From Carcharhinus longimanus (lineage: Eukaryota), in the NCBI GenBank assembly GCA_030264375.1, contig JASCQW010000001.1:110058445-110122444 (forward strand): DNA of 64,000 nucleotides, in the 5' to 3' direction. Below are positions 2,338 to 38,690 of this stretch, in pieces; the stretch's first letter is position 1, and the number at the start of each line of letters is the position of its first letter. The position numbers were made by a program, and so were the translations under genes. The notes under the pieces were generated by a model, which was not told where the DNA came from, did no database searches, and saw only the letters and a program-made list of their open reading frames with translations.

Positions 2338-4994
2338 CTAAAACCAGTTTCAGTCAGATAATGTTACAGGACAATCAATCCATTAAAATACAAACACAAG
2401 CTCAAAGTAAGAACAGAAATAAAATATAACCATCAACACCTGCCCGGTTGCCAATTTGGCAGCATAGGAATTTAGATGCCTGTTTCACACTTGTGGTGAG
2501 GGGGAAGTGAAATAGTGTGGCTGCAAGACATGAGTTGATTTTCTATCTTAGGCTAGACTTCCTTTGGCAGGTAGCAGTGAATTTACTGCCATCGGTTTGA
2601 CAAAAAAAATCTCCTGCTCTCAATTCCACAACGATTTCCCAGATGGCCAGGAATAGCGAATCTATATTTATTAAATCCTGAGGAGCAGGTAGGATTTGAT
2701 ATTGCAACTGTGTGTGGGCTGGCAAAAAATAGTCTTGGCTGTCAAAAGTTATAATTAATACTGATGTAACTTTTTAATTGCTTCATAATAATTGGTAAAA
2801 GGATTCAAAAGCTATTAAGGAGACAATTGCATTGTCTCCTTGCCAACGATAATGTTATACTGCTTTTGCCCCATTGATGTGGAACAGGTTTTACTTCCCA
2901 GTGCAAAAACTAAAACCTGACTGCAGCAAACCTGGTGGTCAAGGTCAGGCGTGAAGAGTTGCTGCCATGGCACTTTGTGCCAGGGACATGGGTAAGAGGC
3001 AAAACTTCTCAAATTTCACAATCAAAACTTAGAAAATACAAAAGTGATCCACCCAATTGATCTGCACCTTTTCTTAAAATTCAAAACAACAATTTTTTGA
3101 GAATAGAAAGATCCCAGGTTTGTGAGCAGAACTCCACCACGTCACTCATGGCAATAGGATCAGATGGTGCGATTATGTCAGTGCAAGTTTATTTGGCCTT
3201 CTTTTGCAGCAGCTATCAAAAATCACACAGGTATAAATTAGTCCCTGTTTTGTAACCTGTGCGATAAAGACCATGTGATTCATTGCAAGTTCTCCACACA
3301 CAGAGGCATTGGATCGACATCAATTTTACCCTGTCTCTCTCAGTACAGGCAATGGGGCAGATCAGGTGGTGTGACATTGCGAATGCTGATTCTTCCTTTA
3401 TAAATAGGCTTAACTTCTTTCTCAATCCGCAGTGGTAACATCCCCAGTGATACTTTGTGAGACAAAATTCTTAGGAGGCAGCTCTCAAACTAAGAGGAAT
3501 GCCAGTGATAAGTGTGAGAGAAAGGGCTACAATAAATAATGGGGGAGGGGGGAATTGGGGAGTTGGAGATGCAATACAGCACCTCCTAGCTGCAGAGGAA
3601 GGTTTCTTCAGATGTTTATTTTTTAAGGCCTTTTTGAGGTGTTTCGTCCTTGTGCAATAGAGGCTGGAATTCTGTTCTGTTCATCACAAGCCAATTTGGT
3701 AGATAGGGTCACAAACAACTGGCAGGTCTCTTCTGTACACATATAAGGGATCTACCATCTAAAAAATGACTAGCCCTAACAGATCAATGCCTTGGGGCCC
3801 AGAGCATTGCCAGCCTATTTTACATCCATAAGAAAAGAATAAGGAGGATCAATTTCTCCCGACATGTTCATCAGAGTACATAACCAGAGCAAATTGCTTG
3901 CAAGAGTAAATGTTGCCTGACAGGACAGCGGAAATAAAGGCCTTGATATTCACCCCAAACATGGATCAATGAGGGTCAGATGGGTCCAAAGCGTTAAACA
4001 CCTAAAGTGTGTTCTCCACACTTTATCAATCCACGCTCGCCTGCTACCTTTTGTTCTGGCAGATGTTAAAGCGTCCAAGTATCCCACATTGAGAGGTGGA
4101 ATAACTAATATAGCAGACTACTCCTCTCAGGCCTCTAGGAACTCTTTGATCTCCTCCAGCCTTGATTGCCAATCTTCCCCAGCCTCCAGCCTTCCCGACG
4201 ACCGATCTCCCTGACTAAAAAGATCACAACCTCTCCCTCTACCCATGTACAGCCTCAACCTCCCATTCTGATGGTGTGATCATTTTCCCTCATGATTGCC
4301 AGGGAGTGCATTCAAGGCTCCTTGGTCGTGACTTTCTTCCTTCCCACCTGCAGGTCAGGCTGCTGGACAAGAACAAAACATTTATTAATGAGGTCTGGCT
4401 GCCTAGTTTGCCTAACTCTGCATTACAGGTAACACCAGTTGCTGTCTTTAGCCTCCTTACACCTTCTCCTAATTCTGTAATTACCGGAGCCATAGAATCT
4501 ACAATATCGTAAAGAGGTGCCAGCTGCTATTCTGATTCTAGAAGATGTATTACATTAAGACTACATAGAAAAAGCTACTGCACATTCCTTACACAGATGA
4601 AGGCAGTGATATTGCAAGTTGTCAAGTGTCTGACTCTCAAGCAGAAAATCATATAGTTGGGTTCTAGGGCAACTGGTCACTAAACACCCTATTTCTCACC
4701 AGCTCTCAGATGGCTTACTAGCTAAAATGCCACCCAAGAGGCTAGGAACACAATGGGGACTGCGAAAAAAAAAGATCAGTCAGACTTCTTTTAATCATGC
4801 TTAACATGAGCAGTGTGGATGGCCATCATAAGCACTTTTGTGAATTAACTGTATCGTCCTTCCAGACAGTGAGGAGGATATAGGATAGTGCAAAGGCATT
4901 GAAAAATGCAGCGTCAATTAAGACATTATTGAGAGAGAAATAACATATCACTTGTAATTAAAGCAGATGCTTCTTGCCTACTTAAAGTGCTCAC

Positions 4995-5165
4995 CTGTCT
5001 AGTCGGGTAGTACGTTAGCCACCTTTCGATATGAGCTGCATACCAGCCAGGCACCAGGCATCGATTGTGCAGGGCCCGAAGCTCAGGAACAGCCCGCCGA
5101 CCTGCTGTGATCACCTCATAAAAACTATATCGAAGGGCAGCAGGATCTTCGTGAGCTCGCTGGTG
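4995..5165 (-). CDS. NDST3: NDST exon (171 nt): [57 protein letters not shown]
   Basis: Acceptor ccacag|CAC, donor CAG|gtgagc; RCLVPGWY motif. Confidence 0.97.
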
Positions 5166-9764: not shown

Positions 9765-10095
9765 AGGACAGCAAGGTTGCACAGTGGTTAGCACTGCTGT
9801 TTCACAATGTGGGTATGCCGGCGTTGGACTGGCGTAAACACAGTAAAAAGTCTGACAACACCAGGTTTTAGTCCAACNNNNNNNNNNNNNNNNNNNNNNN
9901 NNNNNNNNNNNNNNNNNNNNNNNNNNNNNNNNNNNNNNNNNNNNNNNNNNNNNNNNNNNNNNNNNNNNNNNNNNNNNCTCAGGTAAATGCATAGGGTTAT
10001 GGGGTAGGGCCTGGGTGGGATTGTGGTCACTGCAATCTTGATGGGCCAAATGGCCTCCTTCTGCACTGTAGTATTCTATGATTCTATTCTATGAT
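9765..10095 (+). mobile_element. HE1-type V-SINE interrupted by a Penelope terminal fragment (about 9810-9877) and an assembly gap
   Basis: A-box head cagtggttagcactgctg, then gccggcgttggactggcgtaaacacagtaa matching 11005-11066, 100 N, then the SINE tail with attctatg repeats. Confidence 0.8.
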
Positions 10096-10990
10096 TTTAT
10101 GTACACCTGGATTAATTATCAGGAGGCAATGAAAAATTTTGCTTGCTACGTAAGGGAGCTTTTTTGGCTTGATAGAACTCACTGCTAAGCTTGGTCTATT
10201 TCTTTCCAGTCACATAAAACATTATAGAAGCAATGGATCTGTGAGGCCTTCATACTTGTCTGAAACAATGGCAGAATTCTCCCTAAAAATAACGAAGTGC
10301 TGCTGCAAGCAGGGAAGCTGGAATTTTAGTGCTGACAGCGATTGTCAAGTGGCATTTAACCACTTTTAGTTTTTAAAATATGCACAGTGTGAAGCATGCC
10401 AGCTCACCCATCTTCACAGAAATCACAGTGCCATATTAAAAGGGCACCCCGATCTCAGAGACATGGAACATGCCCTTACCCTGTCCCCATGGAAACATCA
10501 ACCCCCCCCTCCCTTCCCACCCCCTGCTGTTAAGAGCATCAACCCCAGCCCATCATCACCGAGGGGCCATCTCCTTCCTACCCCTGAATGAACAAGTTCC
10601 GCTTCCCTCACACACCATGCAGGCAAAAGGCTGGTCTCCTCCAGTAACAGGCCCGACCCTTCAACCTCTCCCCCACCGCTCCACCCCATCAGAGTTACAC
10701 ACCGACATAAGGTCACCAAATACTCAGCCCCCCTCAGGCCATCCTTCAGGCTCCATACTTTGACAGTGCCATCCTGGAGAGAAATAAGCACATATATTCC
10801 ATGTGCTGGACATTCACTGAATCTTGTTGATCATGCTGCAAGTTATTGCTGCCTAGCCACAGTAAATCCTTTTGCTGTTGTAAACAAATACACTCATTCT
10901 TCTCTGCCTCGACAAAACACTGGACAGCACTCCAGTCATTCTTGGGTCCTGAGTCCACTGCACCAAAAGATCTCTCTGACACCAGGTGGG

Positions 10991-11175
10991 AAATGATACG
11001 GAGATGCCGGCGTTGGACCGGGGTAAACACAGTAAGAAGTCTCACAATACAAGGTTAAAGTCCAACAGGTTTATTTGGTAGCAAATGCCACTAGCTTTCA
11101 GAGCGCAGCTCCTTCTTCAGGTAACTTACCTGACGAAGGAGCAGCGCTCTGAATGCTAGTGGCGTTTGCTTACCA
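10991..11175. mobile_element. Short Penelope-derived fold-back element with two inverted hammerhead-ribozyme motifs
   Basis: Arms 11076-11124 and 11126-11175 are reverse complements (4 mismatches, 1 indel); ctgacga-aggagc-agc-gctc-tgaat on +, ctgaaga-aggagc-tgc-gctc-tgaaagcta on -; flanked by a direct repeat accaggtggg at 10981-10990 and 11172-11181. Confidence 0.8.
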
Positions 11176-11619
11176 GGTGGGGAACACATACATAAAGTTT
11201 AAAGTTTATTTATTAGTGTCACAAGTAGGTTTACATTAACATTGCAATGAAGTTACTGTGGAAATCCTCTAGTAGGCTCATTCAGTCATAGCTGAGAGTT
11301 ATGGTTCAATTATCGATTCTCTTACTCATCTTCATAACGATGACAATGAAAAAAGGTGCTACAAGGAGACAAACTGCCATTCTACAGGAGAAAGGGGAGA
11401 AATTTAGAGTTTGTGTTTATGTTAGAACTTTGGAATCGTTTGTTAGATCGGTCCCACAAAACCAGCCAGTCTCTACAGGATCCAAAGTACATGCACAAAG
11501 ATTTACAGGTCACTTTCTCACTTCTTGAAAGAAACCCAAGAAAGTTTTGATGAAATTGAACTCAAAGCAAAAGAAAACTTGCCTGATGCGGGTTGTCAAG
11601 ATGTGATGAGTAGAGTCAT

Positions 11620-37159: not shown

Positions 37160-37585
37160 CAATCAAGGAGCAGGAGCAGGCCATTCAGCCCCTTGAGCCT
37201 GCCCCCCCCCCATTTAATTTGATTTGATAGTAACCTCAAATATGTGTCCGGCCACCTCCCTGTAACCTATCACCTCTTGCTTACCAAAAATCTCTCCACC
37301 TCTGCCTTAAAAATATTCAAACACTCTGCTTCCACCACCTTTTCTGACAGACAATTTCAAAGACTCACAACTCTCTGAGTGAAAAAAGCTTGCTTCATCT
37401 CCATTTGAAGTAGGCTCATTTTGTTTTTAAACAGTCCTAGCTCTAGATTCTCCCACAAGTGGAAACATCCTCTCCACATCCATCCTGTCAAGACCCCACA
37501 GGATCTTATAAGCTTCACTCAAATTGCCTCTTCAAAACTCTAGTGGATACAAGGCTAGTCCCTCTAAGCCTTCGTCATAAGACAC
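37160..37585 (-). mobile_element. CR1-clade LINE 3' fragment, tail-to-tail with the preceding copy
   Basis: ggagcaggccattcagccccttgagcctgc end followed by reverse-complement CR1 ORF2 sequence. Confidence 0.75.
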
Positions 37586-38690
37586 TGTAACAAGCCTCAC
37601 CACACCAGATTAAGGTCCACCGGGTTTATTTGATAGCAAGAGCATTCAAAGTGCTGCTGCTTTATCAGGTGAGTGGAGGATTGGGTTCACAAACAGGGCA
37701 TATATAGATACAGACTCAATTTACAAGATAATGGCTGGAATGTGAGTCCTAACTGGTAATCAAGTCGTTACAGGTACAGACAACACGAGTGGAGAGAGGG
37801 TTAAGCACAGGTTAAAGAAGTGTGAATTGTCTCAAGCCAGGACAGTTAGTGAGATTTGTTGTGGAGGTTACAAGTAGTGTGACATGGATCCAAGATCCCA
37901 GTTGAGGCCATCCTCACGTGTGCAGAACTTAGCTATCAATTTCTCTCAGTGATTCTGTGTTGTGTGTCTTGAAGGCCACCTTGGAGAACACTTATTCGAA
38001 GATCAGAGACTGAATGCCCTTGACTGCTGTAGTCTTCCTCGACAGGAAAGGAACATTCCTGCTTGATGATTGTTGAGTGGTGTTCATTCATATGTTGTAT
38101 CTGCATGGTTTCGCCAATGTACCATGCCTCAGGACGTCCTTTCCTGCAGTGTATCAGGCAGACAATGTTGGCCGAGTCGTAAGAGTATGTAACGTGTACC
38201 TAGTGGATGGTGTTCTCACGTGAGATGATGGCATCCATGTCAATGATCCAGTACATCTTGCAGAGGTTGCTGTAGCAAGGTTGTGTGGTGTCGTGGTCAC
38301 TGTTCTTCTAAAGGATGAGTAGTTTGCTGCAAACAATGGTCTGTCTGAGGTTGTGCGGTTGTTTGAAGGCAAGTAATGGCGGTGGCCTTGGCGAGATGTT
38401 GATCTTCATCAGTGACATGTTGAAGGCTCTGAAGAAGATGAAGCAAATAAGAAGGAGCTTCTCTGCTCCAGGAAAGTACTGGACGATGAAGGGTACTCTG
38501 TCTGTTGTATCTTGTATTTGTCTTCTAGGAGGTTGGTGCGGTTTTTCGCTGTGGTGCATCGGAAGTGTTGATTGATAAATCGAGCGCCATATCCTGTTCT
38601 TATAAGGGCATCTTTCAGTGTCTGTAGGTGTCCTTTGCAACCCTTCCCATCTGAGCAGATCTTGTGTATATGGAGGGCTTCAAACTCAAC
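37586..38690 (-). mobile_element. Penelope-like element 3' part (RT thumb/linker, GIY-YIG endonuclease, terminal repeat with decayed hammerhead motif)
   Basis: ALHIHKICSD, HLQTLKDALIRTGY, TDRVPFIVQYFPGAEKL, PPLLAFKQPHNLRQTIVCSKL, and SANIV...EAWYIGETMQ (GIY-YIG); terminal region 37586-37675 matches 11030-11124. Confidence 0.9.

Follow-up and report, generated by a model that had tools for sequence, protein, structure and literature searches.

In our study, a stretch of 64,000 nucleotides from Carcharhinus longimanus, referred to as the window, was analysed. It raised the question of how a short palindrome, which carries hammerhead ribozyme motifs on both of its strands, came to lie in it. The original prediction took this palindrome to be a minimal non-autonomous derivative of a Penelope-like element (PLE), moving as a unit. 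We found that the palindrome is real and ordinary, and is explained by the known biology of PLEs.

The insert, its host sequence and its family

The insert was found to be 181 bp long (10991–11171) and to lie between two identical 10-mers (accaggtggg), as had been predicted for about 180 bp. The host repeat has nine other matches in the genome; seven carry the equivalent site once and uninterrupted, one stops at the site and one is deleted across it. The 10-bp target site duplication (TSD) was judged to be real because seven of the nine paralogues have a single-copy empty site. The features are listed in Table 1, where signed positions are counted from the hammerhead nucleotide C3, taken as 0.

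Table 1. Positions in the window of the insert, its parts and the flanking host sequence.
Feature	Positions	Strand	Remarks
Host sequence, left part of decayed hAT-like transposase	10760..10990	+	Paralogue comparison
Target site duplication, left copy	10981..10990	.	Identical 10-mer; single-copy empty site in 7/9 paralogues
PLE pseudo-LTR (pLTR) forward arm, 5'-truncated	10991..11124	-	-4 to about +127 (hammerhead C3 = 0)
Approximate tail, about +91 to about +127	10991..11029	-	Two 3'-end classes and ORF junction
pLTR AATAAA hexamer	11070..11075	-	NDST sense strand
Minimal type I hammerhead motif, intact core	11088..11124	-	Descriptor match and family conservation
Head-to-head junction	11125..11125	.	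Forward arm from -4, inverted arm from -5/-6
Inverted arm, short, from about -5 to +40/+44	11126..11171	+	Hammerhead copy with A15.1 mutated
Target site duplication, right copy	11172..11181	.	Identical 10-mer

The right half of the insert was confirmed as palindromic, and the predicted arm length of 49 nt was not: the arms (11080–11124 and 11126–11170) are 45 nt long, 91% complementary and separated by 1 nt, and a length of 49 nt requires both a gap and the inclusion of 4 nt from the right-hand duplication. The folding z was -10.2 and -10.5 on the two strands, and none of 200 shuffles was equally stable. The tail of the forward arm ends at the first bases of the ATG start codon of the element, and at the end of the inverted arm 4 nt are microhomologous to the target duplication. 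When 35 family copies are aligned, the window copy departs from the majority base of the column at 10 of 132 positions, and its two arms have diverged from each other at 4 of 45. On the minus strand the junction reads CAG/GTAAGT (11132–11124), a consensus-like splice donor in the hairpin tip on the NDST sense strand, with the AATAAA (11075–11070) about 50 nt downstream. Two further copies of the same pLTR end were present in the window, one at 9815–9877 (63 nt with 87% identity, cut off by an assembly gap) and an older one of the short-spacer type at 37582–37674 (73%).

The insert sits inside a hAT-like fossil within an intron of NDST. The NDST context was confirmed by deacetylase-domain exons on one side, upstream on the minus strand and past the window end, and by a minus-strand sulfotransferase exon on the other (4980–5126; NDST1 residues 729–775, E 1.5e-15). 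The hAT-like sequence continues at 11182–11192 and about 11274–11590. The fragments of it in the window gave no Pfam match and no protein-search match; a paralogous fragment matched DUF4371/ZBED8/FAM200-like clusters at 0.95. The predicted hAT host is thus upheld through the paralogue and not through the window itself, and the assignment is supported only indirectly. Right after the insert the fossil is broken by some 80 bp from a different dispersed repeat (11193–11272), which has matches of 76–89% at other loci and may resemble a SINE 3' end.

The family is abundant. A 23-mer from the non-palindromic part of the insert had 30,120 exact matches in the 2.68-Gb genome, whereas its reversed control had none, and 21 pLTR arms were counted in 40 random stretches, which together held 347 kb of N-free sequence. 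In long copies the end of an ORF lies upstream of the pLTR. Its homologues were shark proteins with RVT_1 and PF26215 (E down to 1e-96); RVT_1 was confirmed, and the GIY-YIG Pfam match of the ORF end itself was weak and under the cut-off (E 0.0016). The N-terminus of a full-length homologue, P0006, was used as a genome query and 30 loci were examined; at no fewer than 17 of them (at least 17/30) the pLTR or tail runs into the ORF ATG (about +125). One locus (L206) spans residues 1–880 of the 881-aa RT + GIY-YIG protein, and in the family the pLTR was found on both sides of the ORF, after its end and, at L193 and L206, before its ATG. The combination of RT and C-terminal GIY-YIG in one ORF is a family-level result, drawn from homologues and from broken copies. 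An ORF is absent from the window copy, and 12 stretches retrieved in search of an intact one, many of them N-rich, yielded none. The insert is very probably the pLTR end of a truncated endonuclease-positive (EN+) PLE, and the PLE origin proposed at the outset is well borne out.

A C-x4-C-x2-C motif before the endonuclease in homologues P0003 and P0006 suggests the Neptune/Nematis type as described in PMC8557442 (Craig et al., 2021). In a literature search with most subscription papers and repeat databases outside its reach, the shark family was not found described; it may already be catalogued somewhere, and the supplements of PMC4209133 and 10.64898/2026.07.22.740005 may list shark motifs. 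Six of the 15 homologues (P0005, P0007, P0010, P0012, P0013, and P0015) are annotated shark host-gene isoforms carrying the endonuclease end of the element (NOXP20-like, CYP2C31-like, septin 5a, XRCC5, PPP1R12A-like, and USP8), which is either exonisation or an annotation artefact. A tandem array of about 68-bp units, derived from the pLTR segment +58 to +103, was observed beside a head-to-head unit at L147:500–960.

Hammerhead motifs and their predicted folding

A hammerhead with a palindromic stem III had been predicted on each strand, with the better-preserved copy on the NDST sense strand. The minus-strand motif contains CUGAAGA at 11120 (C3), followed by an unpaired A, a 5-bp stem II (pairs GU, GC, AU, GC, CG) and GAAA-GCUA. 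Its stem I is 4 bp long and includes two G-U pairs, and cleavage is predicted 3' of 11092. The core, stem II, palindromic 15.2/16.2 and NUH triplet of a minimal type I hammerhead are all present in this arm. The plus copy carries GAAU, which breaks A15.1, and falls outside the minimal type I definition. The motif thus stands intact on the minus strand, which is the NDST sense strand, and in broken form on the other.

In a covariance-model search, as had been suggested for checking the motif, no Rfam hammerhead model matched the insert at E <= 10; the scan returned just weak miRNA and snoRNA matches under gathering scores, which arise because the insert forms a hairpin. The putative hammerhead identity rests on the descriptor match and on conservation across the family. 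Among 67 strict-core motifs, at least four of the five stem II pairs are formed in 59 (a count made without a shuffle control), pair 3 is A-U in 34, G-U in 15 and G-C in 12, and GAAA is followed by GCU and then A, U or C in 60. Judged from these sequences, the motif looks maintained in the family. The stem II variants diverge widely among copies (L036, L051, L028, and L039) and are mostly still paired; this variety suggests many source elements.

The motif resembles the min-HHRs of metazoan PLEs (Cervera and De la Pena, 2014; PMC4209133) in its type I core, short helix I, unpaired base 5' of stem II, palindromic 15.2/16.2 and variable stem II. Stem II is 5 bp in the shark copy, in contrast to 7–8 bp in Schistosoma. 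The same paper reports mostly single motifs, from truncated PLEs, and also dual motifs 100–700 bp apart on opposite strands, whereas the two motifs of the window adjoin each other directly, back to back. Its abstract, Results and Discussion make no mention of sharks.

The competition between ribozyme and antisense hairpin that had been proposed for the pre-mRNA is predicted to be one-sided, in favour of the hairpin. The pairing probability of stem II rounded to 0 in all five minus-strand transcript prefixes tested and was 0.33 for the arm alone. The constrained hammerhead fold had -30.1 kcal/mol as against -77.5 kcal/mol, a cost of about 47 kcal/mol for the hammerhead stems. The ribozyme of the window copy is predicted to be inert, because the antisense arm always precedes the hammerhead arm in transcription, in either direction, and because the insert holds no same-strand partner for dimer cleavage. 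Such a partner is needed by minimal hammerheads (PMC4209133), and the published self-cleavage of dimers is low (PMC4209133) or protein-assisted (PMC11167929). The 45-bp duplex is a plausible ADAR substrate.

Co-option of the insert for control of the NDST pre-mRNA, whether through ribozyme cleavage, through editing, through a cryptic splice donor or through polyadenylation within the intron, would draw on the intact core, the consensus-like donor (11132–11124) and the AATAAA (11075–11070) of the sense strand. We consider it very improbable: the drift between the arms (4/45) and the differences from the family (10/132) are what neutral decay would produce, the model predicts that the hammerhead fold is unpopulated, and with 21 arms per 347 kb of random sequence the pLTR copies are ubiquitous. 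One copy in a long intron is expected, since such copies are everywhere.

Junctions across the family and the origin of the inverted arm

The main sample consisted of the first 100 exact 23-mer matches on contig C1 and was blind to junctions. The arms were mapped to natural reference copies. The window copy, L082 (which duplicates L081) and a short arm at L109 that proved spurious were dropped, 18 of 146 arms with N on the 5' side were treated as censored, and two L135 copies, apparently one duplicated insertion, were both counted. The first genome search had used the whole palindrome, which biased it to similar junctions, and it was excluded from the counts. Assembly gaps often start right at these elements (e.g., L040, L041, L044, L054, and L059), and the inversion counts are lower bounds because palindromes break short-read assemblies.

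The 141 usable 3' ends were found to fall mainly in two classes, with 65 at +117 or beyond and 66 at +83 to +100. Head-to-head pairs numbered 34, of which 31 consist of one arm with a tail and one inverted arm that lacks it, in agreement with the inverted 5' terminal piece expected of PLEs. An exact TSD of at least 7 nt (7–11 bp) was present in 13 of the 34 pairs, one of 5–6 nt in 6, and none in 15.

If the palindrome were a discrete non-autonomous element, transcribed and reinserted whole with a hammerhead on both strands, its copies would be recognisable by a common inversion point and length. Many of the pairs are indeed of similar size (150–734 bp overall, with 27/34 at 150–238 bp), the junctions cluster just 5' of the core, and some identical junction strings, few in number, were met at several loci. 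All 34 pairs of junction coordinates in the junction-blind sample were distinct, and 11 further pairs from other samples also differed from one another. The exact 17-nt junction centre of the window copy occurs seven times in the genome, and the other six loci all have different arms, one of them (L259) with the tail on the opposite arm. None of 29 other loci from the whole-palindrome search had the short-arm layout of the window copy, which is atypical for the family. A degenerate junction pattern was uninformative (201 matches, 109 for the control). For the window copy the palindromic-element reading is, on these sequence comparisons, largely refuted, and we give such an element hardly any credence; the inversion point proved to differ from copy to copy, the very finding that the original prediction had named as fatal to it. 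Each insertion event likely generates its inverted half afresh, as an ordinary by-product and not as a new mobile family. The identity as a non-LTR retrozyme (Li et al., 2026; 10.64898/2026.07.22.740005) was also rejected: the insert is likewise non-coding, hammerhead-bearing and related to PLE pLTRs, but retrozymes are head-to-tail tandem repeats with same-strand motifs, whereas the insert is a single head-to-head unit with no same-strand tandem.

The layout is that of the insertion units of EN+ PLEs (Arkhipova et al., 2013; PMC3846280; and PMC8557442). PMC3846280 describes the same layout with a TSD of 9–10 bp and a 31-bp tail, and PMC8557442 a tail of 30–40 bp and an adjacent inverted copy. 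Common to those units and the shark insertions are the 5' truncation, the adjacent, inverted and truncated pLTR in head-to-head position, the 30–40 nt tail on one arm, the 9–10 bp TSD, the pLTR abutting the ORF start, and, within the pLTR, a TATA-like and a TCACT-like motif spaced by about 20 nt. Unlike such units, the window copy has no ORF, and its inverted arm stops at about +44 instead of about +91 and joins the target through microhomology. The PLE Poseidon PAc of Anolis carolinensis (Frangieh et al., 2024; PMC11167929) is alike in having two reverse-transcription start sites bounding the tail and in inserted copies that do not end at the ribozyme cut site. Its ORF begins within the hammerhead, whereas some 125 nt separate the core from the downstream ATG in the shark element, and the shark ORF has the C-x4-C-x2-C motif before the endonuclease, closer to the Neptune/Nematis description.

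We infer the steps of cutting, priming and joining from the observed family identity, ORF link, TSD, 3'-end classes and per-copy junctions. It is somewhat probable that the palindrome was made in one insertion, in which both target ends primed reverse transcription on the element RNA. A staggered cut of the target would leave 10-nt 3' overhangs. The left target end would prime antisense cDNA at the tail end (+127), and the last 4 nt of the right end, complementary to RNA +41 to +44, would prime a second cDNA there, in place of the usual second start at about +91; after one extra base, this cDNA would continue antisense from +40. Both cDNAs would stop at -4/-5, likely near the 5' end of the RNA, and would be joined head to head. 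Both arms of the window copy carry the minority T at -3 and +20 and so come from a single template. In PMC11167929 a purified PLE protein is reported to cut each of the two strands and to extend it, with starts at two sites that delimit the tail, and such twin priming would explain both the two 3'-end classes and the layout of the window copy.

By sequence alone, twin priming is indistinguishable from fold-back self-priming, in which one cDNA from the tail end folds back, copies itself and joins the other target end via the 4-nt microhomology. Fold-back has been proposed for junction palindromes of PLEs (PMC3846280) and would account for the layout of the window copy too. The very short inverted stubs at L258 (about 8 nt, fitting a snap-back better) and L255 agree with it, and near-zero-loop junctions and short overlaps are common in the sampled pairs. 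On its own it leaves the regular ends of inverted arms at +83 to +100 (66/141 3' ends) unexplained, which fit a second reverse-transcription start site (PMC11167929), and no pre-existing hairpin is evident at -4/-5 in the sequence. We regard fold-back as possible but rather unlikely; the identity as a truncated PLE insertion is very probable with either mechanism. The preferred reading as a whole, with twin priming, is weakened by the clear exact TSD in just 13 of the 34 pairs, by the lack of an intact ORF in the 12 stretches, many of them N-rich, and by the atypical short inverted arm of the window copy.

5' ends of the copies and their significance

The 5' ends were found to pile up 0–12 nt before the hammerhead core. 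Among 110 subfamily-classified arms reaching the core, 50 stop there, where about 12% is expected. In the first sample the stop rate was 0.061 per nt at 0 to -12 and about 0.01 elsewhere, and 46 of the 81 arms reaching 0 stopped at 0 to -12. The replicates were weaker, with 4 of 16 (p 0.02) for arms from the random stretches and 5 of 21 (p 0.16) for those from L032–L060. By subfamily, and with both this split and the 0 to -12 bin picked post hoc, the counts were 32/48 for the short spacer (p 7e-19) and 18/62 for the long spacer (p 2e-4), as against 11.8% expected; arms unclassified by spacer gave 5/8. The window copy is of the long-spacer type. A single universal and sharp hotspot is weakened by the replicates, and the difference tracks the subfamily.

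Ribozyme cleavage was rejected as the source of the 5' ends, since only 4 ends fall at +28 to +30 over 536 nt at risk, a rate at the predicted cleavage site of 0.0075 per nt against a baseline of 0.0096. The lack of an excess at this site is in line with uncleaved RNA as the dominant substrate, as reported in PMC11167929. The pile-up possibly marks the 5' start of the template RNA. The reference copy has a TATA-like motif at about -37 to -31 and an initiator-like CCACT at -8 to -4, which resemble the TATA and TCACT pair of rotifer pLTRs (PMC3846280), and a transcription start at CCACT would explain the pile-up. Just one of nine ORF-bearing copies that keep the hammerhead starts at -7, which counts against this reading. 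The pile-up was not found described in a literature search with most subscription papers outside its reach, and it is a modest new point.

A wider proposal is put forward only tentatively, as we doubt it more than we believe it. PLE transcripts might start about 6 nt before the core, at the initiator-like motif some 22 nt behind the TATA-like box. The tens of thousands of stumps might then record the mechanism, with both target ends priming internally just downstream and running off the 5' end; each event of this sort might leave a head-to-head unit whose ribozyme is silenced on both strands, hence the tolerance of such units in introns.

The window locus matters little, being one old stump among tens of thousands. 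For annotation, such palindromes mimic miRNA precursors and should not be named as new families. The family is a large natural data set on how PLEs build inverted ends, and what value remains lies in the hotspot of 5' ends, dependent on subfamily, through which inverted-end formation can be tested. If the pile-up marks the RNA start, the promoter would be placed, a testable model of twin priming would be gained, and ribozyme cleavage would not define the inserted template in vivo.
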